20,000 nucleotides of DNA, taken from an uncultured virus (IMG/VR IMGVR_UViG_3300031912_000006) (Duplodnaviria; Heunggongvirae; Uroviricota; Caudoviricetes). The number at the start of each line of letters is the position of its first letter. Position 1 is the first letter of the stretch. Positions 4,559 through 19,943 of this stretch are shown piece after piece. The notes below the pieces were generated by a model. That model saw only the letters and a program-made list of their open reading frames with translations, was not told the origin of the DNA and did no database searches. The position numbers and the translations under genes were made by a program. Location: IMG/VR virus record IMGVR_UViG_3300031912_000006; one strand, written 5' to 3'.

Positions 4559-5486
4559 CTGTTTCCTCCTCAATCCCAACCATGTCGGCTGCCTCGTCGA
4601 CAGAGTCTTGCGTTGCCTTCACCAGACTCATTGGGTTACTTTCCTTTTCACCGTTGCGGTTGCTACGGCGATTGCGCTTGTTGGGTACAACCCGCCCAGG
4701 CGCAGGCTGCTGCGGTCCTGCTTCTAACAGTTCCCGTAGCTCTTTGAGATTGCCAATATGGCCTTCTCGTATAACAGTTTTCGGCTCCAAGCACCGCGTA
4801 CGGTCCTTGGCCATGACGGTTTTGCTTCCGCGCCACTGGATTACGCGATACTCCTCATAAACCGCGTGGCCGTCTTCATCAGTTCCCGTCCTACGCCGAA
4901 CAACTCGCATGTTGCCGAAGCTCGTCATCCAGCTGGCCGTCGCCTTGGCGTACTGCGTGCCCTTGCCCTGGAGCATTGGGATCACGACCTTGTCGCCTTC
5001 TTCGTTCTCATCCTCCATCTGGAGCGCGGTGTAGAGAACGTTACACGGTAAAGCGTTGAAGCTCTTGACAAGTCGCCGGAACTTCTCGTAATACGGCACC
5101 CAGTCCTGAAGCTGCGGTACGTCAGGATCACGACCAGGATTTAGCTCAACGCCTTGGTCAAGGATATGCCGCATACACATCTGCTGCATTTCCGTAAGGC
5201 TGTCTAGCACAACCCAATTGAACGGTATCGGGTCTTGCTCGCGCAGCCAGTTGTAGGCATCTTGAATGTCGGCCCACGTGTGGATTTTCCACTTCATCGC
5301 CGTTGAGCCAAATCGCTTGGCGCTCAACGTGCCGTTGTCTTCCGGCGCGATGAACAGCACGTCATCATCAGACCCTGCGAACACGGTCTTGCCCACGCCG
5401 CTGTCGGCGTAGATCATGAGGTTGACGTACTCATCCTCATCCTGTAACGAGATGATCTCGTCAGGAAATTGCACTTTCATTGTCAC
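4551..5486 (-). CDS. AAA_24 family ATPase (Sak4-like recombination ATPase)
   Basis: Walker A IYADSGVGKT, Walker B VVLDSLTE, AKDRT motif; lies between the nuclease and SSB genes. Confidence 0.85.
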   Translation of the reverse strand: MTMKVQFPDEIISLQDEDEYVNLMIYADSGVGKTVFAGSDDDVLFIAPEDNGTLSAKRFGSTAMKWKIHTWADIQDAYNWLREQDPIPFNWVVLDSLTEMQQMCMRHILDQGVELNPGRDPDVPQLQDWVPYYEKFRRLVKSFNALPCNVLYTALQMEDENEEGDKVVIPMLQGKGTQYAKATASWMTSFGNMRVVRRRTGTDEDGHAVYEEYRVIQWRGSKTVMAKDRTRCLEPKTVIREGHIGNLKELRELLEAGPQQPAPGRVVPNKRNRRSNRNGEKESNPMSLVKATQDSVDEAADMVGIEEETDA

Positions 5487-5680
5487 ATGAATTCCTGTTC
5501 CTTGTATGGTGCTTCGTCCATTCGGACAACGTACCTTTCGATTTCCTCAACTTTGGCTAGGATCCAGTCTGCATCAACGCCTTTCACTCGTTTCAATGCT
5601 TTCTGCCTCAAAACCCTTGTCTTGAAACGGTCTAACTCGACCATTCCACGATCCTTAACTCTGGCAACAATTTTGATCAC
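5483..5680 (-). CDS. Hypothetical protein
   Basis: 4-nt overlaps with both neighbours. Confidence 0.75.
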   Translation of the reverse strand: MIKIVARVKDRGMVELDRFKTRVLRQKALKRVKGVDADWILAKVEEIERYVVRMDEAPYKEQEFM

Positions 5681-6870
5681 CTCACCTTCTTGCTATTGTC
5701 CGCACCCTCACGGTGATCCGCGTAAGGATCGAATGTCTTCATCGCAGTCTCAATGAAATACTCTGTGTCACCTCCACTTTCGTCAAGCTCACACAGGTCG
5801 AAGAACTTACACCACGGGCAGTCCTTCGTCGGAGTCTTCAGTACAGGCAACCTGCCGCCGCGTACCTCAGCCATCACTCGCGCTTCTTCGCTGATGCGAA
5901 CGATCTGGCGCTGCCGTTCCTTCGGAGTACGCGGCACAAAGTAGCGCAGGAAGTTGTCTGTGCTCTGGTCTGCGCTGATGTCGCCGTAGACCGGACCAAC
6001 GCACTGCTGAGCGCAAATCGCTTCTAGGTCAGTCATTTTCAGCTTCATCAATCCTTCGCGGTCGCTCTCCACGTAGTCGCTGTCCAAGTGCGTGACGAGA
6101 GCGTCTATGTAGTGGCGCTTTTGGGGATTGTTACGGGCCTGATTATTGACGTCGCGTGGGCGAGTGTCGAGCTTGGCGCGCTTGATGATGTTCCACTCCA
6201 TGCCGGCAATGACTTGATCCTTCTCGATAAGTCCTTGGCGCTGAAGGGAATGCGTGCCCACGGCGATGTACGTGGACGGCTGCTCGTCTAGCGTTAGGTG
6301 GCGGGTTTCAATCTTCGTCATCGTCTTGTGGTCCACCATCTTGATGAGCGGCCTGCCCTTTGGGTCCTCCTGGTTGAGGTCACGGTAGCAAAGGTCAATC
6401 GTTCCAACCAATTTCACGATTGGTGTGTAAACCCGCCTGCCCTTCTTCGACTCCATACGCGGCACCCGCACATCCGGTATCAGGACATCAAACCGGCGCT
6501 CGGCGTCTAGCACGTCCCAGTGCGGGTCACCTTGGTACCGATTTACATATGCGACAAGCAATTCCGCGCCAAGCGTGTAGAAGTCCTCCCACTTGGCCAC
6601 CAGCTCATCGTCGCGTACCTCCATCGTCCTGACGGTGGTGATCATGTCCTTGGCTAGTTGCTCCCAAGTCTCGGCAGGATGCGGCCCGCGCTTTAGGCCA
6701 GGTAGGTAGTACCCAGCCAGAGCTACGTGGACGAGCGTCCCAAACTCCGCTAGCTCCATGCCTCTTGGCATCAGTGGCTCCAGGCCGCGAACGTACTGCT
6801 GGTACCACGCCCACTGGCAGCGTTTGAAAGCTGCTCTCTCGCTCTGCCTTAACAACGGCAACTCAGCCAT
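5677..6870 (-). CDS. Cas4/RecB-like PD-(D/E)xK exonuclease with predicted Fe-S cluster
   Basis: FKRC (first Cys), GTLVH, E...GTIDL...VDHKT...Q..TY, and C-terminal CPWCKFFDLC; start ATG 6870 after AGGAG. Confidence 0.88.
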   Translation of the reverse strand: MAELPLLRQSERAAFKRCQWAWYQQYVRGLEPLMPRGMELAEFGTLVHVALAGYYLPGLKRGPHPAETWEQLAKDMITTVRTMEVRDDELVAKWEDFYTLGAELLVAYVNRYQGDPHWDVLDAERRFDVLIPDVRVPRMESKKGRRVYTPIVKLVGTIDLCYRDLNQEDPKGRPLIKMVDHKTMTKIETRHLTLDEQPSTYIAVGTHSLQRQGLIEKDQVIAGMEWNIIKRAKLDTRPRDVNNQARNNPQKRHYIDALVTHLDSDYVESDREGLMKLKMTDLEAICAQQCVGPVYGDISADQSTDNFLRYFVPRTPKERQRQIVRISEEARVMAEVRGGRLPVLKTPTKDCPWCKFFDLCELDESGGDTEYFIETAMKTFDPYADHREGADNSKKVR

Positions 6871-6997
6871 TCGTAGTCTCCTGCGCGAAAGTTTGTTTGT
6901 CTGCACATGAATGGTATTGCGTATCAACGTGAATGAACCCCGTGCCGCAACGGGCACAGGGCTCAATCTCTTGTTGGCAGTGTGGGCACTCAGGCAT
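6863..6997 (-). CDS. 44-aa Cys-rich zinc-finger-like protein
   Basis: MPECPHCQQEIEPCARCG...; AAGGGA before ATG 6997; 8-nt overlaps with both neighbours. Confidence 0.65.
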   Translation of the reverse strand: MPECPHCQQEIEPCARCGTGFIHVDTQYHSCADKQTFAQETTNG

Positions 6998-7208
6998 CGT
7001 ATTCCCTTGCGATGCAATCGGAGCACATCTTGTAGGTGACCGGCTCTCCGTCGAAGATAGCGAATTGCCGGCGGTACTTCTCGCCTGGGTTGATGGTACG
7101 CTTGCAGCTGTTACACACATGTGCCCGTTTAGCTTTGATGCGCCTATCGCTCAGGAGTAAGCCGGTATCTTCCGGCTCACGGGTCAACCAGTCGTCAAGA
7201 CCTCTCAT
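6990..7208 (-). CDS. Zinc-ribbon protein (CxxC...CxxC)
   Basis: KAKRAHVCNSCKRTINPGEKY...MCSDC; ATGA overlap. Confidence 0.75.
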   Translation of the reverse strand: MRGLDDWLTREPEDTGLLLSDRRIKAKRAHVCNSCKRTINPGEKYRRQFAIFDGEPVTYKMCSDCIAREYDA

Positions 7209-8288: not shown

Positions 8289-8296
8289 TTCAGTTT

Positions 8297-8399
8297 CCCT
8301 TTCGGTTGTTCTTCTCTTACCAGGGTTGCCATACCCTGGAGGATGTCAGGCCAAGGCTGCTTAGCGTGGCCACGACTAGCCTGACATCCACCAGGGCAC
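8297..8399 (-). promoter_or_regulatory. Hairpin-leader unit 8: long stem (8331-8399) plus AACAACCGAAAGGG
   Basis: GTGCCCTGG-T-GGATGTCAGGC / GCCTGACATCC-T-CCAGGGTAT; SD motif 8 nt before ATG 8288. Confidence 0.8.
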
Positions 8400-8482
8400 C
8401 CAGCCGTGCGAGTTGCGTATCTCGCCACGTTCCGGCTGGGGCCTGGCCCACCGCGTTTTAGTCCTGTGTGGGCTTCGGACGC

Positions 8483-9358: not shown

Positions 9359-9652
9359 CTATTCGCGGTCTCCACGTACCCGTTTGACACGCCGCATTCG
9401 GTGTACCTTAGCCGGGGCGCCACCATCTAGCCGCATCGTACGGCGGCCAGAGTCGTGTAGCATCCGTCGTATCTCGTTGCGTCGCTCTTCAGCTTCTTCC
9501 TGATTGACAATTCGATCCATCAGTGCCGAAAGCTCTTGCGGCTCAACAACTTTCGTAAACAGATTTCGAGACAAAAAAGGCCGCGCCCAGAGGCCCAGCG
9601 CGAAGCTGAGCATGGACGCGGCCCCAATTGCCGCATAAGCGATTTCAGTCAC
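9359..9652 (-). CDS. Small membrane-anchored protein
   Basis: N-terminal hydrophobic helix IAYAAIGAASMLSFALGLW; GTGA overlap with the helicase. Confidence 0.7.
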   Translation of the reverse strand: MTEIAYAAIGAASMLSFALGLWARPFLSRNLFTKVVEPQELSALMDRIVNQEEAEERRNEIRRMLHDSGRRTMRLDGGAPAKVHRMRRVKRVRGDRE

Positions 9653-11595
9653 GGGTGAAGCAACTCCTTAGTGAAGCCCACGCCGCGCTGCCCATCTATG
9701 ATTGACTTGATGCTAACCTCCTTGTCTAAGTTGGCCTTTGCGATGCCCTCTTCAATCGTTCCGCGAGAGAACACCTTCCAGATCACAACTTGGTGGATAC
9801 GGGATAGCCGGTGGAGCCTATCTTCCACCTGCTCTTGATCGCTCGTGTTCCAGGTTTCATCCAGTAGCACAAGCTCGTCGGCAGCGTCCAGCGTAAGCGA
9901 GACACCGCCAGCGGTCGTAGTAAGAAGCAGTACGCGGGTGTCACTCGTTAGATTCTCTTGCCAATCCGACTTGATGTCTTCGCGCTTCTTATCCGACGTA
10001 TCACCAGTGAATACGTGAGCCTTGATTCCCTTCTCGCCCAGCCCTTTCGCAAAGGCATTGATCAGCTGCGAGAATTGGGAGGACACAACCACTTTGGGCA
10101 CACCCACGCGCTCGTCGTAAGGTAGACCCGCCAACTCACCGTCGATACCGCGCTCATCCAGCATCTCCAGCAACCAGTCGAACTTGTTACTGGGTAACGT
10201 CGGGATGAACTGCTCACCGGCCATCATGCCGTAGCTACCGGCGAATTGCTTCAACCGGGTTAGCTCCGCCAAGATACCGTTCGTTACGAGCGTGCCGCCC
10301 TCCAGATCAGCTTCAGCCTTCTTGACCATAGACTCGTAAGCAGCTGCCTGCTTCGGTTCCATGTCCAGCCAAACCGCAACCGGCCCACCAGGTATCAACG
10401 GCCAACCGCCGTATAGCTTGGCGGGCAAGTCACTTGCCACTTCTTCTTTCGTGCGACGGATCATAACGTTGCGAGCCTCATCATACATCGCTTCGGCGTC
10501 GATCATCTTTCCGATTTGCTGCCCGTAGCCATCGTGCCACGTGTTGAAGTGTCGCTTGATCCAGTTCCAGTAGCTCCGGTAGTTATCCGGCCGCAACCAG
10601 TTCAGCTGACCCCACAGGTAGTATTCCTTGCCACGGAAAGGCGTGCCCGACAACGCAATTCGCAGACCATCCTTACGGACGTTCAACGCGCCCAGGCCAA
10701 GCCGTTGCGCGCTCTGCTTCTTCTTGTTGCCGGTGGCTCCCGCTAACGTCTGGTGTGACTCGTCCACCACGATGGCGGACCACTCGACACCAAACAGCTC
10801 AAGAACCGTTTCACGTACGGCGTGAATGACCTTCTCGCCGTTGACCTTCTCGTAATTACCGTACTCATCCACCTTCGCACGAATGCGAACGTAGTTGGGC
10901 GAAGTAATCAGCCAGCACCGCTTGCCGCCGTGTTCGACGGTAGCCAGCGCTGCCTTGACAGCTTCCACGCGACCACTCGGACTCAGCTTGGAGTCAAGAG
11001 TGATCACGTTATCCGTTGGCAACCAACGCTTTAGCTCCTGCGGCCAGGTTAACTGAACCGCTGCTTTCGGCGCTACGACGAGGATGGGGCCACTAATATC
11101 AGCCTCCACTATCGCCGCGATGGTCTGAATGGTCTTACCCAGGCCCGGTTGGTCAGCGATCAAGCACGAACGGTTCCGTGCCGCGAACGCCGCGCCTACC
11201 GTTTGGTATGGCCTTGGCGGGTAACCCAATTCAGGAATGCCTTCCGACATAATCTTCCAGATGTCCGGCGCGTGCTCTCGAACACGTGGCAGGTCAACAA
11301 GATCCATGGATTGTACATCCGGTATCGTGTCCTGGTGCGACTTCTCGTGAGTAGCCCACTCGACTAGCGCCGCTGTCATTTTCAGATCAGCGCCAAACTT
11401 GTTGGCTACCTTACGTGCTCCAGTACACGAGTCCCAGTGGATAGGAAACTGCCAGCGCGCCTTATCGCGGTTCCACCTAGCAGGGCCAGGCAGGTACGCT
11501 TTCAGAGCGGCATTCGCGTCAGGATCGTAACGGTCAGTCATGATCCAGATGCAGTCATCGTCTAGGCCGATAGCCCACAGTCGCTTCTTAGCCAT
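9649..11595 (-). CDS. SNF2-family DNA helicase
   Basis: ADQPGLGKT, VVDESH, LSGTP, GGVSLTL and EQVEDRLHR motifs. Confidence 0.93.
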   Translation of the reverse strand: MAKKRLWAIGLDDDCIWIMTDRYDPDANAALKAYLPGPARWNRDKARWQFPIHWDSCTGARKVANKFGADLKMTAALVEWATHEKSHQDTIPDVQSMDLVDLPRVREHAPDIWKIMSEGIPELGYPPRPYQTVGAAFAARNRSCLIADQPGLGKTIQTIAAIVEADISGPILVVAPKAAVQLTWPQELKRWLPTDNVITLDSKLSPSGRVEAVKAALATVEHGGKRCWLITSPNYVRIRAKVDEYGNYEKVNGEKVIHAVRETVLELFGVEWSAIVVDESHQTLAGATGNKKKQSAQRLGLGALNVRKDGLRIALSGTPFRGKEYYLWGQLNWLRPDNYRSYWNWIKRHFNTWHDGYGQQIGKMIDAEAMYDEARNVMIRRTKEEVASDLPAKLYGGWPLIPGGPVAVWLDMEPKQAAAYESMVKKAEADLEGGTLVTNGILAELTRLKQFAGSYGMMAGEQFIPTLPSNKFDWLLEMLDERGIDGELAGLPYDERVGVPKVVVSSQFSQLINAFAKGLGEKGIKAHVFTGDTSDKKREDIKSDWQENLTSDTRVLLLTTTAGGVSLTLDAADELVLLDETWNTSDQEQVEDRLHRLSRIHQVVIWKVFSRGTIEEGIAKANLDKEVSIKSIIDGQRGVGFTKELLHP

Positions 11596-12194
11596 TAGCC
11601 AACGCTCACAATCGAATCCAGATACACGGCGTGGTAGCCGTAGTTATCGCAAAACGAAATTTGGCGCGGCGCACCATTGTTGACAACGCGGAACATCTTC
11701 CCGCCAACCAGCGCTGAGCTCAACGCTCCGCTAATCCGGTTGACCCAGACGATGCTCTTGTTGTTGAGTACTGCCTTGACCTCTTCATCGCTAGATTCGT
11801 GATCAAAAGGCAACGTACCCTGTACTGCTGCAATGGTTTCCGCTGCTGCCTCGACTTTATCGGGCGTACGTTTCCGCACAGCCGTCTTAAGCCGCTCGGC
11901 GCTCGGCGGTTTAGCCGCGATGTTGGCGGCCGCAGATACGTTCTGGCACTTGATGCTATCGCCTGCCAGGGTGTAGACTGCTTCGATGAACTTACCAGTC
12001 TCCTCATTCCACGAGATGCTCATGGTTTCGTTGTCCCCACGGCTCGCTTGTAGATTGAGCATGCCGTCGGTAGTGGTCCAACCGCCCTTCCAGCCGTACG
12101 CTTTCGCGTAGTCGCCAAAGTGAGCGGCCTTGTCCATGGCTGTAGAGCCATGAGACCTGTATCCACTTGGGTTACGAATAACCCTCTCCATCAT
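11595..12194 (-). CDS. Hypothetical protein
   Basis: Preceded by the conserved leader; TAATG coupling to the helicase. Confidence 0.85.
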   Translation of the reverse strand: MMERVIRNPSGYRSHGSTAMDKAAHFGDYAKAYGWKGGWTTTDGMLNLQASRGDNETMSISWNEETGKFIEAVYTLAGDSIKCQNVSAAANIAAKPPSAERLKTAVRKRTPDKVEAAAETIAAVQGTLPFDHESSDEEVKAVLNNKSIVWVNRISGALSSALVGGKMFRVVNNGAPRQISFCDNYGYHAVYLDSIVSVG

Positions 12195-12199
12195 GAATT

Positions 12200-12289
12200 C
12201 CCTTTCGGTTGTTGTGTTTTCGGGTGCTAAGACGACACCCTAGATAGCTACCGGGAGCCACCCGATAGCCACCTAGCACGGTCCTTAGC
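12200..12289 (-). promoter_or_regulatory. Hairpin-leader unit 7
   Basis: 16-bp inner stem CTAGGTGGCTATCGGG/CCCGGTAGCTATCTAG (3 G.U), outer GCTAAG/CTTAGC; then AAAACACAACAACCGAAAGGG. Confidence 0.8.
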
Positions 12290-12298
12290 TTACTCTCT

Positions 12299-12318
12299 TA
12301 GCCCGGTTCGGGCTAGCC
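12299..12318. repeat. Palindromic motif TAGCCCG-GTT-CGGGCTA (operator-like, copy 1)
   Basis: CCGGTTCGGGCT core recurs at 17262 and 17401. Confidence 0.6.
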
Positions 12319-12501
12319 CGCTTCGACTTCCGAATCTGTCAAAAGCTGGCTCTCCCTTACCCATTGAGACCAGGAGTGGTTATTGTGCGGTGGAGCCGGG
12401 GCAAGCCGTACTTTGGCCCACCCCGGTATCCGCTTGACTATCTCGCACGGAGCGATATAGCCATCAGGATGTCTTGTGCCGCCTGGAAATTCGACGTACA
12501 T
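12313..12501 (-). CDS. Small hypothetical protein (possibly SH3-like beta fold)
   Basis: TGATG coupling to the upstream gene; fills the gap up to the hairpin unit. Confidence 0.7.
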   Translation of the reverse strand: MYVEFPGGTRHPDGYIAPCEIVKRIPGWAKVRLAPAPPHNNHSWSQWVRESQLLTDSEVEAG

Positions 12502-12986
12502 CAGCAGTACACCACCTCACCAAACAGGCCCAGCTGAACCACGAGGTCTGCGACATCCGCGTCGGAGTCTCCATCTTCGCCGTTCGATAGCCATTGGGTA
12601 ACGGCTTGCCGGAGATACTTCCGGCTGAACGGTGCGTCTGGGTCCTCTGACTTAGTAGCTTCAATCACCTTGTCTACGAACAGGTTCATGCCGCGTTCCA
12701 TAACTTTCAGGTCAACGGTCAATTCGCCTGCGCCGCAGTCGAGTTTGATTGGGTCGCCGGCAATCCGCGGCTGGTATGCCTTATCGACGCCCCAGTTGCC
12801 ATCGTCATCGTTAGCCGATAACACCGCAAAGAAGCCATTGATGTCGCCTGCTGGATCGCCACCGGCCTTGTCGTTGGCCCAGTGGTATTCCTCAGCGACA
12901 GACCAATATCCAATTCCGCCCTCCAGAGCGGTCGTGAACATGTACAGGAGAAACCGCTTGCGGTCGTCTGTCATCGTCGTGGTCAT
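12501..12986 (-). CDS. Hypothetical protein
   Basis: Coupled overlaps on both sides; TALEGGIGYW ... DADVADLVVQLGLFGEVVY. Confidence 0.85.
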   Translation of the reverse strand: MTTTMTDDRKRFLLYMFTTALEGGIGYWSVAEEYHWANDKAGGDPAGDINGFFAVLSANDDDGNWGVDKAYQPRIAGDPIKLDCGAGELTVDLKVMERGMNLFVDKVIEATKSEDPDAPFSRKYLRQAVTQWLSNGEDGDSDADVADLVVQLGLFGEVVYC

Positions 12987-13159
12987 TTCACATCCATTTC
13001 GTGTAGTTCCGAAACACAGGCTGGGCAGCCCATGTACACCTGGTCACCGCTGCTGTTATGCGTCGATTCCCAAAGTCGGTGTCTGCCTACGTAATCCGCT
13101 GTCGGCTCAGTTTCAACCAAGCCACCAGCCTCATCACGCATGGCGTGTTTCATCCACAT
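12983..13159 (-). CDS. 58-aa hypothetical protein (not in the ORF track)
   Basis: ATG 5 nt after the conserved GAAAGGG; MWMKHAMRDE...MGCPACVSELHEMDVK; ATGA overlap with the next gene. Confidence 0.8.
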   Translation of the reverse strand: MWMKHAMRDEAGGLVETEPTADYVGRHRLWESTHNSSGDQVYMGCPACVSELHEMDVK

Positions 13160-13164
13160 ATCTT

Positions 13165-13232
13165 CCCTTTCGGTTGTTGGGTTGGGCGATTAGCCCGCAG
13201 GACGCAAGGACCAAAGCCCTTGCGCCCGCCGC
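13165..13232 (-). promoter_or_regulatory. Hairpin-leader unit 6 (GCGGC-stem-TGCGG class)
   Basis: GCGGC GGGCGCAAGGGC TTTG GTCCTTGCGTCC TGCGG ... CCCAACCCAACAACCGAAAGGG. Confidence 0.85.
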
Positions 13233-13240
13233 GCTTTCGC

Positions 13241-13891
13241 TCAGTAGCCGGGTGAACGTCTGCCGCCGCACCACGATTGACCATAGCAAGGTGGGGTGTA
13301 CCCACCTGGTCCCCAAGTACCCGGTACGCCAGGCGTAGTCGAGCAGTTTGGGTCTTGCAGCCAGCACGGAGTAGCACCGGCGCAAATCGCTCCCGGTGGC
13401 GGGTTATATTGCCCGTCACAGGAATACGGAGCGGTCTTGTAGCTCACGACTTGGCCCGGTATCGCGCCCGGTACGCCAGGCACCGTAGTAGCCGGACAGC
13501 CGGGTGGCTTCGGGTTCATGTGGTCGCAGAAGTACTGCTGGTACTGATCTGGTCCCCACGATGTAGTCGGTAGCGTTCCACCAGGCGGCACCATAGGTAC
13601 GCCAGGAACTGTCTCCTGACAACCTATCGTGTAACCGCACGGCCCAGTCGGCGCAACGGTAGTCGTTGGCGCCGTTGTGGTTCCGCACCCTGGCCCTGCT
13701 GCATCGTTCCAGCAATTCCCGTTAGGACTTGGTGTATCTAGATTCGTTGTCGCCGTAACCGTTACCGTCTTTGTTGACGGTATCGGCTGTAACGGCGGCA
13801 CGTTCGTGCTGGATTTATTGTTGGGCGAGAACGCGATACAGACGGCCAAGAACGCCGCCATTATCCCGACTGCCAACAGCAATCGTTTCAT
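13241..13891 (-). CDS. Exported or membrane-anchored Pro/Thr/Gly/Cys-rich protein
   Basis: Signal/TM segment MKRLLLAVGIMAAFLAVCIAF; 12 Cys in six close pairs; PGVP three times. Confidence 0.8.
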   Translation of the reverse strand: MKRLLLAVGIMAAFLAVCIAFSPNNKSSTNVPPLQPIPSTKTVTVTATTNLDTPSPNGNCWNDAAGPGCGTTTAPTTTVAPTGPCGYTIGCQETVPGVPMVPPGGTLPTTSWGPDQYQQYFCDHMNPKPPGCPATTVPGVPGAIPGQVVSYKTAPYSCDGQYNPPPGAICAGATPCWLQDPNCSTTPGVPGTWGPGGYTPPCYGQSWCGGRRSPGY

Positions 13892-14124
13892 TCGTCCACC
13901 TCATCCTCATCCTCATCAGCCGCTTGGAACAATTCGCTGAATGAATACAGCTTGCCAAAGTTCGCACCGTGGCCATTGTTCGTCTGCTCAAGTACGACTT
14001 CGGCATCTTCGCCGTAGTCGCAAATCGCCATCTCGACAGCTTCTTTGAGCTCTTCAAGCGACATTCCATTGACTTGGTCAGGACCATACCCCAGGTTACC
14101 CTGGAACATCATCGTTACCTTCAT
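13888..14124 (-). CDS. Small acidic hypothetical protein
   Basis: Leader motif 5 nt before ATG 14124 (alternative start 14127); ATGA overlap downstream. Confidence 0.8.
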   Translation of the reverse strand: MKVTMMFQGNLGYGPDQVNGMSLEELKEAVEMAICDYGEDAEVVLEQTNNGHGANFGKLYSFSELFQAADEDEDEVDE

Positions 14125-14129
14125 CATTT

Positions 14130-14198
14130 CCCTTTCGGTTGTTGGGTTTTGGGTGTTATACCCTGGATACCCTGCGACCGTAGCCGCAGGGCACCCAG
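14130..14198 (-). promoter_or_regulatory. Hairpin-leader unit 5
   Basis: 16-bp stem CTGGGTGCCCTGCGGC/GTCGCAGGGTATCCAG with a C(UACG)G tetraloop; then CCAAAACCCAACAACCGAAAGGG. Confidence 0.85.
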
Positions 14199-14214
14199 CA
14201 TATTCACTCGGAAG

Positions 14215-15228
14215 TTATTGAAGCTCACCAGCTTTCCGGTGGCGAACTTCGCCGTCAGCCCTGAGGTTGACTTTTTGAGCGGCAGCGTTACCGCGCTCCC
14301 ACGCCGTTTCGTCGTAGTTGTCGCTTGCCTTGATCCGGTAACGGCGTCGGGGCAGCTTCGCTCGGTAAGCTGCGTCCTCAGCCATCATCTTCCGTATCTC
14401 GTCGCCGAACAACCGCTCAAACTCCTCATCGACGTACTTAGCCGTGCTCCGTAGCGCCGGCAGTAAGTCGCCCACGGTAACCTTCTCCGCTGCGGCCCGC
14501 ATAGTACGGAGCCGCTGAGAGATGGTGCCCGCGAAGGACTCTGCGAAGCTGGAGCGATAAGCCTTGTGCCGCTGAGTATGTGGCGTGTAGTCCCCCAGCC
14601 CAGCTTCGCGCATGTACTTCTTGACTTCGCGCTTGAGCATGGACGGAGAGTTAGCGGAGTAGCTGTTAGTGGCCGGGTCAGGAACATCCGCACCGTTACG
14701 GTACGCAATCTTCCAGATTTCGTTCCACTTGAGACCAGCCCGTGTGAGGTGAAACAGATTGTAGCCCAAGGACTGTGAAGCATTCCAGCTTGGGTTAACG
14801 CTCATCACGAACTCACGAAACACCCGAAACCAAATCGCTTCGGCGTAGGCGATGTCTTCGGGATAACCGACTATCGTCCAGACTTCGGTGTCGTAGTCGG
14901 TGTGCCCGTTCTCATCAGTACCCCACGCCAGCCTTGGGTAGAAGCGAATGTTGTTGTGCTTCAAGATCGCAATGATCAGGGAGCGTACCGCGCTATTGAA
15001 CTCGCGGTTCTCCCTACCCAAGGTCACGGTCCAGGTGTCCTTGATTGGCTTCGTTTTGGCCTGAGACCCAAGGTCTTTCAGGTCATTGAATCGGTCGATC
15101 ATGTGTTGGGCCATGAGGTTCTCTGCGTTCTGGGCAGCCAATTCGCGCTCCGCTTCGGTAGCGTTCTCGTCGGCAGCCAGCGCCAAGAGCTTCATGACCC
15201 TTTGGATCGCCTGATCTTTCGTTGCCAT
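14215..15228 (-). CDS. DUF2786-domain protein
   Basis: N-terminal IQRVMKLLALA...TEAERELAAQNAENLMAQHMID matches the DUF2786 pattern. Confidence 0.8.
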   Translation of the reverse strand: MATKDQAIQRVMKLLALAADENATEAERELAAQNAENLMAQHMIDRFNDLKDLGSQAKTKPIKDTWTVTLGRENREFNSAVRSLIIAILKHNNIRFYPRLAWGTDENGHTDYDTEVWTIVGYPEDIAYAEAIWFRVFREFVMSVNPSWNASQSLGYNLFHLTRAGLKWNEIWKIAYRNGADVPDPATNSYSANSPSMLKREVKKYMREAGLGDYTPHTQRHKAYRSSFAESFAGTISQRLRTMRAAAEKVTVGDLLPALRSTAKYVDEEFERLFGDEIRKMMAEDAAYRAKLPRRRYRIKASDNYDETAWERGNAAAQKVNLRADGEVRHRKAGELQ

Positions 15229-15233
15229 AATAT

Positions 15234-15302
15234 CCCTTTCGGTTGTTGGGTTTTGGACTGACTAGTCCGCAGGGCACACCGGAAACCCGGTGTACCCGCC
15301 GC
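15234..15302 (-). promoter_or_regulatory. Hairpin-leader unit 4 (GCGGC-stem-TGCGG class)
   Basis: GCGGC GGGTACACCGG GTTT CCGGTGTGCCC TGCGG ... CCAAAACCCAACAACCGAAAGGG. Confidence 0.85.
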
Positions 15303-15315
15303 ACTTTCAGTCGAT

Positions 15316-15540
15316 TTACTTGGTCTCTTCAATCGTTACGTCCAGGAACAAGCCCTTAGACGCCATGGACACCGACAGCTCGTTGGCGCGCTTCTTGCTT
15401 TCGGTCGTAACGCTAACCTTGCGGCCGGCAGTGCCATTCCGGTACGGCTTACCCTTCGGCATCGTGCTCTCGTGGTGGGTAAACACCGGGTTGTCAGGAT
15501 CGAAGTGGGGAGTAGGAACAGTCCCAGTTACCTTGTACAT
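15316..15540 (-). CDS. 74-aa hypothetical protein
   Basis: Start moved to ATG 15540, 7 nt after the leader motif (MYKVTG...). Confidence 0.8.
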   Translation of the reverse strand: MYKVTGTVPTPHFDPDNPVFTHHESTMPKGKPYRNGTAGRKVSVTTESKKRANELSVSMASKGLFLDVTIEETK

Positions 15541-15547
15541 CGCAATT

Positions 15548-15622
15548 CCCTTTCGGTTGTTGGGTTTTGGGTTGGTAGAGATACCCGCAGGATGCTGGGG
15601 CCTAAGCCCCAGCACCCGCCGC
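15548..15622 (-). promoter_or_regulatory. Hairpin-leader unit 3 (GCGGC-stem-TGCGG class)
   Basis: GCGGC GGGTGCTGGGGC TTAG GCCCCAGCATCC TGCGG ... CCAAAACCCAACAACCGAAAGGG. Confidence 0.85.
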
Positions 15623-15626
15623 GTTC

Positions 15627-16271
15627 TCACCAGCCGTACTTCGCACGGCAGTCAGGACCGATACCGATTTCACGGCTCAAGTCGTTGGTCAGGCCGCGTC
15701 CGCAAACGCCGCACTGCTTGAACTCCTTGCCGTACAACGCACTTGCCTTAGCTGCGCCGTACTCCGCGATTTTGTTTGCGACCGCTTTCTGCGTCCCCAT
15801 CGCCAACCGCTTCTCGTAGTCGCTAACCATCAGCTTCACGAAAACGTAACCGGCCCACTTGCCTTCGGTCGGGCGGTCCACTTTGTAGAACGCGGTCTCA
15901 TTGATCGCGCCCTCTTCAGTCGGTATTCCGTACCGCCCTTCGGGCAGCACCGATACGTCGGGCCAGGGCAACGCCTCAGCCGGGGCAGCTTCAGCCGCAA
16001 CGCCTTTCGGCAGTGGTGCGTCTTTCAGCCTCTCCAGCAGGAAGTCAAACCCAGCCATCGTGATCTGCTTTTGGTCCTGCGACGCGAGAAGGATATTGAC
16101 CATTTCCGGTTCGTAGTCCTGCTCATCGCAAACGGCGAACGCGGCCTTGATCTGCTCCAAACGCGGATGGTGCTTCGGGTCGAAGTTAACCCACTCGCGC
16201 TGGATCAGGCTCTTCAGCCACTTCAGCTGCTTCGGAGAAGCCAGCTTTTGTTCCTTTGTCGCCATCGTCAT
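15627..16271 (-). CDS. DUF6011-domain zinc-finger protein
   Basis: C-terminal CGVCGRGLTNDLSREIGIGPDC; N-terminal ASPKQLKWL. Confidence 0.8.
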   Translation of the reverse strand: MTMATKEQKLASPKQLKWLKSLIQREWVNFDPKHHPRLEQIKAAFAVCDEQDYEPEMVNILLASQDQKQITMAGFDFLLERLKDAPLPKGVAAEAAPAEALPWPDVSVLPEGRYGIPTEEGAINETAFYKVDRPTEGKWAGYVFVKLMVSDYEKRLAMGTQKAVANKIAEYGAAKASALYGKEFKQCGVCGRGLTNDLSREIGIGPDCRAKYGW

Positions 16272-16278
16272 CTCAATT

Positions 16279-16356
16279 CCCTTTCGGTTGTTGGTTTTTG
16301 GTTAAAAGCTCGCGCTTCGCTCCGCAGGGCCAACGGGAAACCCGTTGACCCGCCGC
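16279..16356 (-). promoter_or_regulatory. Hairpin-leader unit 2 (GCGGC-stem-TGCGG class)
   Basis: GCGGC GGGTCAACGGG TTT CCCGTTGGCCC TGCGG ... CCAAAAACCAACAACCGAAAGGG. Confidence 0.85.
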
Positions 16357-16359
16357 AAC

Positions 16360-16680
16360 TTACGCGGTGTGGTTCAAACACCACTGACTCGGGCAAGGGC
16401 AGTTCGTCGCGCTGTGGTAGTACCCATCGTGCGAGTACAACCCAGCGTCGGCAATCGCCTCATCCCAAGTCTTAACCACCTTCCAGCCGCGTTGCTCCGC
16501 AGCTTTCAGGGCATCCTTACGAGTGTCGAACCGATCGAAAGTTAGTGCCGGCCAGTGGACTTCGCCACCGGCCACGATCTCTTTGTGCTCAAAGCTATAA
16601 CGCTTCTTAGTCGGAGCGTGGTACGTTCCGGCTTCGGTAGGGTCCCAAACTTTGCGCACCTTTACCTTCGCATAGATCAT
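16360..16680 (-). CDS. Hypothetical protein
   Basis: ATGA overlap with the upstream gene; His/Cys-rich C-terminus; stop 3 nt before the hairpin unit. Confidence 0.8.
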   Translation of the reverse strand: MIYAKVKVRKVWDPTEAGTYHAPTKKRYSFEHKEIVAGGEVHWPALTFDRFDTRKDALKAAEQRGWKVVKTWDEAIADAGLYSHDGYYHSATNCPCPSQWCLNHTA

Positions 16681-17006
16681 TTCGACAGCCTCTCAATCGC
16701 TTCGCGTGTTTCCGAAACACCAAGTGGCGCATCAGGACGTTCGACTAACTCAACGTCGGGATACTTGAAACACGCGGCTTCGTACACGTCCATCCACTCA
16801 AACCAGACCTCAACATCGTAGTAATCGTTCAACGTCGCGCTCATCACGCGCCCGATCTGCCCGATAAAGCTACGACCCGTGTCCGTCCAGTCGAAGGTGT
16901 CCTTATTCGTCGGATCAGTAACCACTCGCTTCGGAGAACCAATCTCCTCATCGACGTCAGTCACAGACACCACGCGAACCAGGTCACCATCTTTTAGCTT
17001 ACTCAT
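16677..17006 (-). CDS. Hypothetical protein (first gene after the control region)
   Basis: Leader motif 5 nt before the ATG; LKDGDLVRVV KOW/SH3-like start. Confidence 0.8.
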   Translation of the reverse strand: MSKLKDGDLVRVVSVTDVDEEIGSPKRVVTDPTNKDTFDWTDTGRSFIGQIGRVMSATLNDYYDVEVWFEWMDVYEAACFKYPDVELVERPDAPLGVSETREAIERLSK

Positions 17007-17011
17007 GAATT

Positions 17012-17100
17012 CCCTTTCGGTTATTGGGTTTTGGAGTCAGCAACAACTGCCCCTGAAACCGCAGTGGCGAAACCACTACGGAATCAGCAACTTTCGTTGC
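17012..17100 (-). promoter_or_regulatory. Hairpin-leader unit 1
   Basis: Interrupted stem GCAACGA..CTGA-TT-CCGTAGTGG/CCACTGCGG-TT-TCAG..TTGTTGC; then CCAAAACCCAATAACCGAAAGGG. Confidence 0.8.
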
Positions 17101-17261
17101 CCCAACAACAACCATAGAATAGGATTTCGGCGCGTCTGGGTCCCTACGGCCATGGTCGCCGTAGTCCTCTCTCGCGCCTTATTAACTAGACCATCTAAAC
17201 CTACCGCCCGCGCCGTACTAGGTACGCGATCCCCATTGCTTTAGGCCGCCGGGTAACAGTT

Positions 17262-17277
17262 CCGGTTCGGGCTAGCC
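17262..17277. repeat. CCGGTTCGGGCTAGCC (copy 2)
   Basis: 16/16 identical to 12303-12318. Confidence 0.6.
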
Positions 17278-17398
17278 ATCTCCGCGCCTCTCACGCGCGG
17301 TCTATCTCCCTTACCAGCTTCGCGGTATTTAGTTGGTCCCGGCTTCGCCGGTAGGTCTGACTATACCCTCTGACCAGGTCTGACGCTACTCCTAATCG

Positions 17399-17412
17399 GC
17401 CCGGTTCGGGCT
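17399..17412. repeat. GCCCGGTTCGGGCT (copy 3)
   Basis: 14/14 identical to 12301-12314. Confidence 0.6.
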
Positions 17413-17582
17413 GATCCGGCCTGGTGGCGCGTAACCAGCTGTTTTAGGTGCGCCGGTACGCCTACCCACCGGAGCCGTTCTCGTTGGTCCCTGGCCAAAT
17501 CCTGGCCATCCGGCTACCTCCTAGCTCGTCGCCGGGGTTACCGTATCGCTAGGGTCCGACGAGCTACCGGAACGGAGTTAGG

Positions 17583-17825
17583 TTGCCTAAGCAAATAACG
17601 GTCTACACCAAGCCGGATTGCGTGCAGTGCGAGTACACGAAGAAGTGGTTGGCGCGAAGATCATTGCCGTTCAACGAGATTGACGTGGTTGAGCACCCTG
17701 TGTTCGCCGAACAGCTTCGGGAACAAGGGATTTCACAAATGCCCTACGTCGTGGCCGGTGACCAGAAGTGGTCCGGCTTTAAGCTGGACCGCATACGTGG
17801 ACTGGACCCGAAAGACTACAGCTGA
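17583..17825 (+). CDS. nrdH: NrdH-like glutaredoxin
   Basis: ITVYTKPDCVQC...MPYVVAG...WSGFKLDRI; GGAG before the TTG start. Confidence 0.92.
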   Translation: MPKQITVYTKPDCVQCEYTKKWLARRSLPFNEIDVVEHPVFAEQLREQGISQMPYVVAGDQKWSGFKLDRIRGLDPKDYS

Positions 17826-18262
17826 TCGCGCATGTGATCGCGGCTCTGCTTGATACCCGCTAGATGCTTCTTCATGTCTACGCCTGGTGGGTTGCTGATC
17901 GGCCGCGAGTGCGTGATGACTCTTGGTGGCTTCTTCGGCTGACCGATTAGCCACGTGCTGACATCTTCGTCTGTGGGCGGGTTGGTCGCTTCCCAGCGCT
18001 CGTTCACCAAATTCACTGCATCGTTGTGGGATAGCTGTAGCCGCTTCTCAAGTGTTTCAACAGCCAAGTCGAATATCTCTTTGTCCTCTGCTTCAAACTT
18101 GTTGTCGTCCCACATATCTCCAGTAAGCAGTTCAAGCAACGCCCGCATCTTGAGGTTCTCAAGCGTCATGACCACGAGCTTGCGTTCAAGCATGCCTATG
18201 TAGCGGCCTGTCTCGTTGTTATAAACGAGGTCTATCAGTGGGTGTCTGGTCGGTGCCATCAT
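17816..18262 (-). CDS. Hypothetical protein downstream of lysin B
   Basis: AAGGAG followed by ATGATG overlapping the lysB stop; no transmembrane segment. Confidence 0.75.
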   Translation of the reverse strand: MMAPTRHPLIDLVYNNETGRYIGMLERKLVVMTLENLKMRALLELLTGDMWDDNKFEAEDKEIFDLAVETLEKRLQLSHNDAVNLVNERWEATNPPTDEDVSTWLIGQPKKPPRVITHSRPISNPPGVDMKKHLAGIKQSRDHMRDQL

Positions 18263-19179
18263 GCTCCTTGGTAGGCTCTTACCCAATCGTGGACGTGCTG
18301 TATTCCTAGTCCGACGTAAGTCATGCCAGGCCACACTTCTCGCACATGGTATTCACAATGCGGCGCTGTCGGGAACGGCGGTGAACAGAAGAATATCAAC
18401 GCATCGACGGCTGCCGCTATAGCTGCTGAAATACCTCTCACCGTGATCAGTCGATCAGTCAATGGTTGTATTTGTAATATCTCTGCCTCTGACAACTCTG
18501 CTGAACCAGGATCGTTGCCTGTTTTGGCGACTACTTGAGATTCAATATCATCCCAAGCATTCCCATCCAAATTCTGAGCTACCTCAACACAATTGCCCGC
18601 AAACGTGCGGGCGAACTCAACCGCACCACTATGCATTTCCATCTCTGTGCACAGCGTGTAAACGTCGCGTTGAATCTCGCCGGTAAGCCCACGAGCGCTG
18701 GTGCCGTATAAGTCGCCTGGTTCGATCAGTTCGCACCAGTCCCAATCCATCTGAGGCAAGCGGAACTCAGCTATGCCTTCAACTGGCGTGGGTGGCCCAC
18801 CGAAATAGGTGCTGTGCTCGTGACGGCTAGGGTTACCAAAAGCGTAGCCGCACACGTAATTTGACCTCAGATACGCAAGTCGGCCACCAGGCTCAAATTC
18901 CATGCGTATCCGGCTAGCGCACTCGCCACCTTGGCTATACCCGCCCAACACCACAGGCCTATCCTCATGAGCCATGATCCACTCTACGGCCCAATCAACA
19001 CCTATCTCAACAGATTCCGCATAGCTCGGCGCTCGGAAGTCGCCAGGCGGTATCGGCCCAAAGCTCCACGGAGCCTGTACAGGTATCTCGTCGCCAACAT
19101 CAGCGCAGGCACGGGCAACGTCGCTCGGGTAGCCGACACCTGGTGCGGCCCAAGTACCGGAGCACGTGAGGATTGCCAC
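18259..19179 (-). CDS. lysB: Lysin B (cutinase/PE-PPE-like alpha/beta hydrolase)
   Basis: SGTW, nucleophile motif GGYSQGG, FGNPSR, GDLY and PHCEY; directly follows lysin A. Confidence 0.88.
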   Translation of the reverse strand: MAILTCSGTWAAPGVGYPSDVARACADVGDEIPVQAPWSFGPIPPGDFRAPSYAESVEIGVDWAVEWIMAHEDRPVVLGGYSQGGECASRIRMEFEPGGRLAYLRSNYVCGYAFGNPSRHEHSTYFGGPPTPVEGIAEFRLPQMDWDWCELIEPGDLYGTSARGLTGEIQRDVYTLCTEMEMHSGAVEFARTFAGNCVEVAQNLDGNAWDDIESQVVAKTGNDPGSAELSEAEILQIQPLTDRLITVRGISAAIAAAVDALIFFCSPPFPTAPHCEYHVREVWPGMTYVGLGIQHVHDWVRAYQGA

Positions 19180-19193
19180 CCGTCCTGTCGGCT

Positions 19194-19943
19194 TTATTGG
19201 CGGCTCTGTAAAGGGGGCTCACCACCTTCAACGGTGTTCTTGATTGAAGCTGTAGCATCGACCAGCGTCAGGTCTTCACCAGCCGCGTTCTGGCCAAGCT
19301 GCGGCCATGGGCCTAGCTGGCGTTCGATGTTATCAACCTTGCGTACCAGATCGTTCCATTCCTCTTGTGTGGGCACTTCGGCTTCTCCTTTGATAGTGCT
19401 GTAACAGAATCCTTTTGGTGGTATGAGAGTACATAGTTGATCGAAGCTAATCCAGTATTCCCAAGGCCAAAAGCCAGAATCCGCAACATAAACGGCGCCA
19501 CCTGGATATTGATCGTCATATCCGACAACACTTGTGTAGTGGTAGGTGTCGCTGTAGTCGCTGTAGTTTGGTGAGTCTGATCCCTTGATCCCTACTGGAT
19601 TGTTGTTGGGCGGAACTTGCCAGTTAGTTACAAGCGAGTAGCCGGCATTGATAGAACCAACGATGCCTAGCTCCCAAAACCTTTGCTTCTTTTGGTCATC
19701 CGGGTAGCTATCCGCATATACAGAGTCATACGGACGTTCTGGCAGCCTACCGTTAAGGCAATTCTCAATCAGCCCAACATAATCGGTGCCGCCCTGGTGG
19801 GTACCGCATTCCTCTGCTAGTATCCATTCTTCGACGTAGATACCCCGACAACTCAGTGCCACTTGGGCACTCGCAGGCCCACACCAGTAGCCAGTTTCCT
19901 GCGGTATGATACCGTGATCAAATGGTAGAATGATTTCAGTCAT
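19194..19943 (-). CDS. lysA: Lysin A: C39-like cysteine peptidase plus short C-terminal wall-binding motif
   Basis: PQETGYWCGPAS (catalytic Cys), HYTSVVGYD, VADSG; C-terminal GPWPQLG...LTLVDA typical of actinophage endolysins. Confidence 0.85.
   Translation of the reverse strand: MTEIILPFDHGIIPQETGYWCGPASAQVALSCRGIYVEEWILAEECGTHQGGTDYVGLIENCLNGRLPERPYDSVYADSYPDDQKKQRFWELGIVGSINAGYSLVTNWQVPPNNNPVGIKGSDSPNYSDYSDTYHYTSVVGYDDQYPGGAVYVADSGFWPWEYWISFDQLCTLIPPKGFCYSTIKGEAEVPTQEEWNDLVRKVDNIERQLGPWPQLGQNAAGEDLTLVDATASIKNTVEGGEPPLQSRQ

Follow-up and report, generated by a model that had tools for sequence, protein, structure and literature searches.

Four hairpins between early genes of this uncultured virus are genuine copies of one folded RNA element, here called family A, which was previously undescribed. 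The phages that carry it, between their early genes, are uncultured, live in soil and form a group with kinship to mycobacteriophages. As we model it, family A most likely marks where a long early mRNA is cut or protected.

Occurrence and location of the element

An earlier note on this DNA had drawn attention to four hairpins with shared flanking boxes, and a pattern scan of the window (the whole 20,000-nucleotide stretch that was analysed) bears it out. The pattern GCGGCGGG-N20-32-CCTGCGG has exactly four matches, at 13195-13232, 15267-15302, 15585-15622 and 16322-16356, against a chance expectation of 0.01; none of 200 shuffles reaches four. All four lie on the minus strand, which is the coding strand, and the full 54,140-bp virus record holds the same four matches and no others (4 forward, 0 reverse). 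The upstream stop codons are also as described, 8, 13, 4 and 3 nt from the hairpins at 13195, 15267, 15585 and 16322, respectively. Downstream of every copy there is a conserved A/C-rich leader with a Shine-Dalgarno sequence; the leader 16-mer, here CAACAACCGAAAGGGA, consists of an A/C-rich tract and a Shine-Dalgarno-like end, GAAAGGGA.

16308-16370, minus strand: family-A copy 1 (core plus upper stem at 16322-16356); flanking genes 106 aa (16360-16680) and 214 aa, DUF6011 (15627-16271); MFE -36.9 kcal/mol, z -4.35; CM 66.7 bits
16278-16293, minus strand: leader 16-mer, 28 nt past copy 1; ATG 6 nt on
15571-15636, minus strand: family-A copy 2 (core and upper stem 15585-15622), its outer stem taking in the TGA stop of the 214-aa gene; MFE -43.5 kcal/mol, z -6.93; CM 61.7 bits
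15547-15562, minus strand: leader 16-mer, 22 nt past copy 2; ATG 6 nt on
15253-15316, minus strand: family-A copy 3 (core plus upper stem at 15267-15302); flanking genes 74 aa (15316-15540) and 337 aa, DUF2786 (14215-15228); MFE -38.8 kcal/mol, z -6.03; CM 81.9 bits
15233-15248, minus strand: leader 16-mer, 18 nt past copy 3; ATG 4 nt on
13181-13246, minus strand: family-A copy 4 (core plus upper stem at 13195-13232); flanking genes 216 aa (13241-13891) and 58 aa (12983-13159); MFE -39.3 kcal/mol, z -4.64; CM 69.9 bits
13164-13179, minus strand: leader 16-mer, 15 nt past copy 4; ATG 4 nt on

A tRNA scan found none.

Fold of the family-A hairpin

Each copy folds in RNAfold as an extended hairpin of about 59 nt, comprising an outer stem, a 3-bp stem, the core, an upper stem and a loop. 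The extended MFE structure is identical in all four copies of the window (z from -4.35 to -6.93), and RNAalifold independently predicts the same architecture. In each of the four, 22-23 predicted pairs and stacked mismatches make up a quasi-continuous helix of about two turns. The inner part agrees with the earlier description: the upper stems are 12, 11, 12 and 11 bp long in RNAfold, with loops UUUG, GUUU, UUAG and UUU, and a G.U or U.G pair occupies upper-stem position 3 (two copies) or 4 (two copies).

The outer part does not. The two GCGG boxes had been taken as separate flanks, but the helix extends about ten further positions outward per side beyond them, and the boxes face each other and pair within one helix as an irregular internal-loop core. 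In the predicted fold of the window's copies the core runs G.G, C-G, G-C, G.G, C.U, and a conserved internal loop between the lower and upper stems (G.G, two base pairs, 2x2 loop) is predicted for all copies; in an alternative register the 2x2 loop would be two single-base bulges facing each other. The upper stem had been regarded as a ruler of fixed length, 11-12 bp; across relatives it measures 9-14 bp and is therefore not a ruler. Family-A loops differ in sequence and in length (3-8 nt), and the copies of two relatives carry an internal mismatch.

Covariation, core conservation and strand

It had been claimed that the stem interiors differ entirely yet stay paired. The pairing is upheld, with compensatory double changes in 13 of 23 pairs among the window's four copies, but the difference is not entire, as the copies share a GGGY base and G/C near the loop. 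Of 90 cells in this alignment, 93.3% are paired, compared with 31-48% when the partners are slid. With eight copies the values are 92.1% of 178 cells and 14 of 23 pairs compensatory. In an alignment of 17 distinct rows, which includes two weak rows and was fitted to the model, 93.0% of 372 cells are paired, 21 of 22 pairs covary, and the covariation score is 0.81 against 0.24 in shuffles, none of 500 being as high.

The core behaves differently from the stems on either side, both of which drift freely in the same copies. All 15 bona fide copies have the same nucleotide at each of nine core positions (C16 G17 G18 C19 G20 and U58 G59 C60 G61); these copies come from four phage genomes and are partly positional orthologues, so that they do not represent 15 independent events. 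Positions 15 and 62, which face one another, form a G.G opposition in 13 copies and an A.A opposition in two; GCGG thus stands opposite GCGG in 13 of the 15, making the core partly two-fold symmetric. The surrounding genes of the four genomes are 65-81% identical in DNA, and the helicase protein about 65%. Loss of the flanks in related phages had been named in advance as a finding that would speak against the element; across these diverged genomes the core is kept in every copy. The comparison supports strong purifying selection on the GCGG-type core while the stems covary.

Among 330 cells, G.U oppositions number 30 and A.C oppositions five, which argues that the element works on the sense strand, and the sense folds of the window's copies are 5.5-9.7 kcal/mol stronger than the antisense folds. 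These observations support the view that family A functions in sense orientation, as a single strand that folds. An uncompensated two-base change in the upper stem of copy 3 (15289-15290) occurs in one metagenome contig, at a depth of 6.3 and 55 nt from the contig end.

Distribution in relatives and databases

Eleven further family-A copies were found in three other uncultured phage genomes, giving 15 in total and three to four per genome. One relative (L164) has a copy at 1536-1600 that is 86% identical to copy 3 over 50 nt and sits at a different junction. In CM searches family A is absent from the closest cultured relative, Onyinye (best E 0.81), and from PLot; it is therefore either dispensable or replaceable by a second hairpin family, family B, described below. 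No ORF of this virus recurs in each of the three other genomes with family A while being missing from Onyinye, which weakly fits a host enzyme rather than a phage-encoded reader.

A search against Rfam, as proposed earlier, gave no window match at the gathering score; in 12100-17900 there were two Rfam matches at chance level (E 0.6-0.99), neither on the hairpins. The literature searched contained no description matching family A. Exact-pattern matches in IMG/VR fall at 119 loci or more, but none of the 119 has the downstream leader or the family fold, and they are thus chance matches in GC-rich DNA. The leader 16-mer occurs in IMG/VR at 26 loci, nearly all in unrelated phages, and a composite pattern in genome contigs hit at least 120 loci, none of them real among the matches listed. 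The homologue search with the 214-aa protein returned nothing; that with the helicase returned two identical fragments and two 44% relatives, none with a family-A element. No relevant match to a named phage came from megablast or blastn, whether the query was the region or the hairpin with its leader. A CM search over three genomes had 0 matches. It also had 0 matches in a sample of 141 genomes from the family surrounding a Mycobacterium genome, which says little, since about 37 of some 1000 candidates per genome were scored.

Family B and mosaic junctions

Families A and B take equivalent positions in related phages. Family B follows the pattern RTGC-NN-GGTG-stem-TATC-NN-GGGT, is common to the window and to Onyinye, which is without family A, and has two hairpins here:

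14160-14201, minus strand: family-B hairpin before leader 14129-14144; weak CM match, 21.6 bits
12237-12279, minus strand: family-B hairpin before leader 12199-12214, downstream of a promoter-like motif

The hairpin at 14160-14201 replaces a family-A hairpin between the 337-aa and 79-aa genes. It was considered as a family-A remnant, an assignment we reject in favour of family B. As Onyinye, which carries family B, can be grown on a laboratory strain, experiments are feasible.

Blocks of homology with a relative begin and end at leaders and hairpins. Variants in soil metagenomes show joints and loose ends at leaders in three to four of four soil runs. The hairpin-leader junctions coincide with mosaic-block ends and with insertion/deletion variants; it is the leader that holds the breakpoints, and the core is free of them. 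Judged from these sequences, this suggests that gene modules may be swapped at leaders between co-occurring soil phages, the hairpin-leader units marking the swap points.

A proposed role in mRNA processing

The signals that direct processing of T7 early mRNA lie between successive early genes. These RNase III signals (R0.3 to R1.3, with R1.1 as the model substrate) are the closest known system, and family A resembles them in having several copies per genome between successive early genes of a long transcript. The shape is similar too: the hairpin is irregular and about two helical turns long, and an internal loop separates its upper and lower stems, general features that are given for RNase III substrates in PMC1540722. 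By this analogy we tentatively propose that family A comprises T7-style intercistronic processing and stability signals, the core being the recognition site of a double-strand-specific nuclease.

The hairpins would punctuate the early, rightward polycistronic transcript of an actinophage as cis-acting RNA signals. Each folds into a hairpin of at least two helical turns, whose lower stem begins at or just past the upstream stop codon and whose base abuts the unstructured A/C-rich leader and its Shine-Dalgarno sequence. The core (R.R, C-G, G-C, G.G, C.U and the first upper-stem G-C) would be the site of recognition and cleavage by a double-strand-specific endoribonuclease, most likely host RNase III, as in T7 early mRNA. 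Cleavage within the core or next to it would part the cistrons, leaving the upstream message with a protective 3' hairpin and freeing the downstream leader. Transcription through the element, recognition by the nuclease and cleavage are steps that we infer; what is observed is a strand-specific, covarying fold between cistrons whose core is under selection and which is followed by neither a U-tract nor a promoter.

According to the account in PMC1540722, RNase III substrates typically span two helical turns, and internal loops limit cleavage to one strand, leaving protective 3' hairpins. The same account holds that E. coli RNase III requires no positive sequence determinant, and the invariant nine-nucleotide core therefore suggests a more specific reader. 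Also counting against the proposal are the absence of family A from Onyinye and PLot, the uncompensated change in copy 3, and the variable upper-stem length with the internal mismatches of two relatives. As that core is constant in all copies while the stems covary, it is reasonable, on the alignment, to suppose that a specific protein or nuclease reads it. The further idea that the RCGGC/UGCGR core, in which the homopurine pair switches from G.G to A.A, is a new protein-recognition RNA motif defining T7-style site-specific processing of early mRNA in actinobacteriophages is rather doubtful. Family A differs from the T7 signals in having no sequence likeness to them, in its actinobacterial host, in a core far more conserved than RNase III is known to require, and in its purine.purine and C.U oppositions.

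If the processing model is true, it would be the first indication of T7-like early-transcript punctuation in actinophages. Family B would be a second such signal, the two families would be interchangeable punctuation hairpins read by a host nuclease or an undiscovered factor, and the excised hairpins of about 40-60 nt might persist as small RNAs.

Alternative explanations

The element could instead be a passive stability or insulation hairpin that blocks 3'-5' exonucleases upstream or shields the downstream 5' end, with cutting elsewhere and the core kept for structural or secondary reasons. RNase E might then make the cuts within the A/C-rich leader, which is single-stranded; the mycobacterial enzyme has a preference for unpaired sites 5' of C. 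The hairpins are very stable and GC-rich, they stand directly before an unstructured C-rich leader, families A and B replace each other as if any strong hairpin served, and no cognate phage protein was found. This reading is nonetheless unlikely, as it leaves the nine invariant positions and the G.G to A.A co-change unexplained in copies whose stems drift freely around them.

It is also improbable that the core is bound by a dedicated RNA-binding protein, from phage or host, that governs read-through, the fate of the mRNA or translation of the following gene, cleavage not being the point. In its favour, the core is invariant, has partial two-fold symmetry and stands between variable helices like a protein operator, and upper-stem position 4 is a conserved U.G or C-G in the 17-row alignment. 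A bulge-helix-bulge motif can, as PMC1540722 describes, permit RNase III to bind without cutting. Against such a protein, no RNA-binding domain was detected in the neighbouring proteins (Pfam gave only DUF6011, DUF2786 and a TrmB-like HTH among 19 proteins), PHROGs assigned mostly unknowns to 27 window proteins, no ORF co-occurs with family A, and the Shine-Dalgarno sequence is not sequestered by the hairpin in the predicted folds.

The nut/boxB analogy offered in the earlier note belongs with this explanation. Lambda boxB is a short hairpin whose loop is read by a protein, and family A would share with lambda nut an RNA hairpin in an early transcript that a protein reads. The loop of family A, however, is variable and the stem base conserved, and a nut-like function calls for a single site in each transcript rather than a site at each gene junction. 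Three to four copies stand between successive genes of a genome, no N-like protein was seen among the window proteins scanned and no boxA was noted; the analogy is not supported.

Terminators or attenuators that lack a U-tract and grade early-operon expression, possibly with a factor, are a still poorer prospect. The hairpins are GC-rich and lie 3-13 nt past stop codons, and transcription of the replication genes could start anew from the promoter-like motif at about 12287-12314. Such a function has been claimed for hairpins lacking a U-tract in actinobacteria and in the early region of phiC31, as reportedly by Ingham et al. in 1995. Yet no run of T follows the upper or the extended stem in any of the four copies, none of which is in the terminator-like list of the window; one copy in a relative (G002) has no ORF before it and lies within the first gene's 5' UTR; and the conserved core is not accounted for. 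In PMC3993855, mycobacterial RNA polymerase in purified form is reported not to terminate at U-less hairpins, whether NusA or NusG is added or not.

A DNA element is very improbable, whether it took the form of single-stranded hairpins or of direct GCGG repeats, and whether its use lay in recombination, in mobility (REP, attC, IS200-like) or in recognition by a DNA-binding regulator. The mosaic ends and metagenome variants at the hairpin-leader junctions, the L164 copy at another junction, and the tolerance of G.T in single-stranded DNA hairpins would suit it. Breakpoints outside the core do not, and neither does the lack of matches in the 141 sampled genomes, part of whose candidates were scored; no integrase, HUH or RAYT-type gene was seen among the window proteins scanned (27 with PHROGs, 19 with Pfam). 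The box spacing varies by several bases, as suits a hairpin and not a rigid duplex site, and together with the excess of G.U over A.C and the stronger sense fold this disfavours the direct-repeat version raised in the earlier note. A tRNA-like minihelix or RNase P substrate was rejected (loops too small, no CCA), as was a self-cleaving ribozyme (no Rfam match), and the resemblance of CCUGCGG to 16S helix 45 is too short to be informative.

Relation to known gene-start repeats

Repeats at the starts of right-arm genes are known in mycobacteriophages (Cluster K SAS/ESAS, Cluster M), those of Cluster K by 2011 (PMC3203893). According to that account, the SAS is a short conserved sequence a few bases before some right-arm genes, with a 13-bp consensus, GGGATAGGAGCCC, that differs between subclusters; about half are preceded by an inverted-repeat feature, the ESAS, with conserved 17-bp inverted repeats and a variable 4-13-bp spacer. 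Departures from the ESAS consensus are described there as not compensatory, and its authors therefore saw little support for an RNA hairpin (PMC3203893). The family-A arms, by contrast, vary with compensation and only the core is fixed, and the leader CAACAACCGAAAGGGA is unrelated to GGGATAGGAGCCC. The function of SAS/ESAS was still called unverified in 2025 (PMC12699233). Family A adds a case in which the RNA fold is established by covariation and the constraint falls on a small irregular core; what had been a vague 'regulatory repeat' becomes a hypothesis about RNA-protein or RNA-nuclease recognition that can be tested.

The CR3/CR4 repeats of Cluster M mycobacteriophages, compared here by their description, likewise have stem-loops upstream, and inserted genes are described as bringing their own repeat copy (PMC7953290). 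The PeSL (promoter-early stem-loop) cassettes of T4-type phages are small and regulatory, flank non-essential early genes and are presented as recombination points for modular shuffling (PMC2839356). A PeSL is described as having a strong sigma-70 promoter and a working terminator, whereas family A has no U-tract and, between the four hairpins and their start codons, no promoter-like site by the sigma-70 consensus, the one consensus applied. The variants and relatives of the window break at the leader, where genes may be shuffled in a comparable way.

Four copies of one extended hairpin

The four hairpins of the earlier note are confirmed at their positions: GCGGCGGG-N20-32-CCTGCGG has four exact matches in the window, all on the coding strand and at those sites, against 0.01 expected by chance, and at least four matches occurred in 0 of 200 shuffles. 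The pattern occurs nowhere else in the whole 54,140-bp record, and coding-strand GCGGCGGG is limited to the four hairpins genome-wide. Stem lengths, loops, the G.U pair at stem position 3 or 4 and the distance of 3-13 nt from the stop codon were also as claimed.

Family-A hairpins in the window (core and upper stem in brackets)
16308..16370, '-': copy 1 (16322-16356)
15571..15636, '-': copy 2 (15585-15622)
15253..15316, '-': copy 3 (15267-15302)
13181..13246, '-': copy 4 (13195-13232)

Folded with their flanks, all four adopt one common extended structure, and unguided RNAalifold returns the same consensus.

Extended fold, from the outside in
Outer part: stem of about 6 bp, small 1x2 loop, 3-bp stem
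Inner part: G.G opposition, invariant C-G and G-C, 2x2 loop (G.G, C.U)
Top: upper stem of 11-12 bp in these copies

In this fold the two 'GCGG boxes', which are indeed present, face each other within one helix and are not the separate flanks first described. The lower stem includes the upstream gene's stop codon or starts just after it. The folds have minimum free energies of -36.9 to -43.5 kcal/mol (z-scores -4.35 to -6.93), and the antisense strand folds more weakly by 5.5-9.7 kcal/mol. The four copies show pairing in 93.3% of 90 cells, compared with 31-48% for slid partners, with both-side changes in 13 of 23 pairs.

Relatives and covariation

An exact-pattern scan of IMG/VR gave chance matches only, with the fold or leader in 0 of 119 among the matches listed. 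Scanning metagenome contigs with a 20-nt leader word yielded 12 loci, including a 12,906-bp contig (L164/L165). The genes it shares with our phage are 65-81% identical, and it carries four further hairpins with the same flanks and different stems. A composite pattern gave two genuine copies among the 226 matches listed, in the complete virus records G001 (73,825 bp) and G002 (71,334 bp); their helicases are 64-65% identical to that of our phage, as distant as Onyinye's. A covariance model built from eight copies, run unfiltered over these sequences and our own, gave 19 matches. Removing two duplicates leaves 17 distinct ones, and without two weak rows (21.6 and 16.6 bits) the bona fide set is 15 (own 4, relative contig 4, G001 3, G002 4); 11 of these copies are from three other uncultured genomes. 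The model found no match in Onyinye (best E 0.81), PLot or two 44% relatives, and Rfam offered no known family for the hairpin region.

Across the alignment of 17 distinct rows, pairing is seen in 93.0% of 372 cells (34.5-49.6% when slid) and double changes in 21 of 22 pairs. Covariation scores 0.81, compared with 0.24 for shuffles, none of 500 reaching that value. This alignment was fitted to the model and is thus biased toward structure; unfitted MAFFT alignments agree. Conservation of the flanks in related phages, on which the earlier reading hung, is borne out: C16 G17 G18 C19 G20 and U58 G59 C60 G61 are unchanged in 15/15 bona fide copies. The opposed positions 15/62 show G.G in 13 copies, and the other two, both from G002, have A.A; read from the alignment, both members of this non-Watson-Crick pair changed together. 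The GGG/CCC at the foot of the upper stem does vary: G001 has GGUAG.../...CUACC and GAUACC.../...GGUAUC, each compensated. Since the upper stem spans 9-14 bp (loops 3-8 nt), the suggested 'ruler' of fixed length falls away. G.U outnumbers A.C by 30 to 5 among 330 cells of the 15 copies, which, with the fold-energy asymmetry between strands, places the function on the sense strand.

Genome setting

The window corresponds to record positions 32418-52417 on the reverse strand; the record's completeness is estimated at 76%, and all genes of the hairpin region lie on the window's '-' strand.

PHROGs assignments
19194-19943: endolysin
18259-19179: endolysin
9649-11595: helicase
5677-7026: Cas4-type exonuclease
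4551-5486: Sak4-like protein
2-1533: DNA polymerase pieces

The proteins flanking the hairpins match the Pfam domains DUF6011 and DUF2786, both of unknown function. By tblastn, Mycobacterium phages Leopard, Onyinye and Aikoy come closest among named phages (helicase identity about 65%), followed by Cluster D phages such as PLot (about 51%); a BLAST search found no DNA-level match to any named phage. Runs with window sequence are soil metagenomes, and these comparisons place our phage, an uncultured actinophage of soil, in the Onyinye/Cluster D neighbourhood.

Leaders and a second hairpin family

Downstream of each family-A copy, at 15-28 nt, lies a conserved, A/C-rich leader ending in GAAAGGGA, with 4-7 nt from leader to start codon. 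The 16-nt leader CAACAACCGAAAGGGA, often with the upstream extension CCAAAACC, precedes eight starts of the early right arm (six copies exact, two differing at one position; chance expectation in the window 0.17). G001, G002, Onyinye and the metagenomic relative have variants of it before early genes, and the role is that of the Cluster K SAS. The remaining leaders have a family-B hairpin upstream, RTGC-NN-GGTG-stem-TATC-NN-GGGT.

Leaders and family-B hairpins, all '-'
17011-17026: leader
16278-16293: leader
15547-15562: leader
15233-15248: leader
14160-14201: family-B hairpin
14129-14144: leader
13164-13179: leader
12237-12279: family-B hairpin
12199-12214: leader
about 8330-8400: B-like hairpin
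8296-8311: leader

Family B has eight copies (own 2, G001 3 on L406, Onyinye 3 on L150); its wobble-rich base is conserved, the top is variable and the NN pairs covary. Its presence in the cultured phage Onyinye makes it bench-testable.

Mosaicism in soil metagenomes

Contigs from four soil runs were compared with window 12900-16700. Differences between co-occurring variants start at leaders, and leaders and hairpins are likewise where BLAST homology between our phage and the relative contig starts and stops. Variants of our own phage have gene blocks missing or replaced, with breakpoints at conserved leaders and start codons.

Joins and loose ends
12975 to 14127: join, three of four runs, matching loose end in the fourth
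13771 to 15545: join, two runs
15570: loose end, three runs, continuing as sequence upstream of leader 17011-17026
16301: loose end, two runs, consisting of the 3' half of a family-A hairpin from a relative

One contig has an uncompensated two-base change in the copy 3 upper stem, which speaks against strict stem conservation or may be an assembly error. The relative's hairpin at L164 1536-1600 lies at another gene junction and is 86% identical over 50 nt to copy 3 (window 15253-15316); its hairpin at the position equivalent to copy 3 has diverged. Hairpins seem, from sequence, to be copied between junctions.

Comparison with known elements

As a composite of hairpin and start-associated leader, the arrangement resembles Cluster K SAS/ESAS (PMC3203893), Cluster M CR3/CR4 with upstream stem-loops, by description (PMC7953290), and T4-type PeSL cassettes (PMC2839356). 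Judged by these descriptions, family A plus leader fails the defining features of all three; Cluster K repeats, for instance, are conserved and not compensatory, unlike family A. The searched literature offered no description of the family-A motif or of Onyinye's intergenic hairpins, and supplements or subscription papers could contain one. That family A is a real, new RNA motif family is strongly supported; it has a limited known distribution, in the genomes of four uncultured phages. Its general kind is a known one, and its function is putative and unproven.

Proposed function

What is secure, on comparative grounds, is that selection maintains family A as an RNA structure of the sense strand and that something reads its small irregular core. 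The preferred candidate role, put forward tentatively, is a T7-style processing and stability signal: RNase III would cut one strand at the irregular helix and leave a protective 3' hairpin, as PMC1540722 describes for helices of about two turns with a central internal loop. The role is favoured because the predicted helix has this form and because the copies separate successive early genes of one apparent transcript; G002's first copy lies in the 5' UTR of the first gene, not behind an ORF. Against it, core conservation exceeds the known need of RNase III, and Onyinye manages without family A. A passive stabiliser, with cleavage elsewhere, is an unlikely alternative. Just as unlikely is a dedicated RNA-binding protein, as the earlier note proposed: a gene comparison of our phage, its family-A relatives and Onyinye found no phage gene co-occurring with family A, which weakly favours the T7-style role. 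A role as U-less attenuators is improbable: our copies have no 3' U-tract, and according to PMC3993855 hairpins lacking one fail to stop transcription by purified mycobacterial RNA polymerase, which again favours T7-style processing; a sequence scan of the window found no sigma-70-like promoter or terminator-like site at these hairpins. A DNA-level role is very improbable given the sense-strand bias.

Other signals nearby

Window 17007-17815, which separates the lysis genes from the first early gene, is about 800 nt of strongly structured sequence with no convincing ORF; Onyinye has an equivalent 555-nt gap. Within the window stretch, about 80 nt ahead of the leader of this first gene, GGTTGTTGTTGG (17102-17113, '-') is the complement of the leader's CCAACAACC and could pair with and mask that leader. 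It is followed by GGCAACGAAAGTTGC and is conserved in Onyinye, G001, G002 and the relative contig. The motif AGCCCGAACCGG occurs at about 17383-17412 and 12287-12314 ('-'), with a TANNNT hexamer 10-12 nt later (TAGCGT, TAAGCT); PLot has the same arrangement (L151 6402, 9146 and 9453), AGCSCGAATCGG ... TAACGT or TACGAT. The pair may be a lineage-wide promoter, and from the putative copy at 12287-12314 transcription would start anew immediately ahead of the helicase block.
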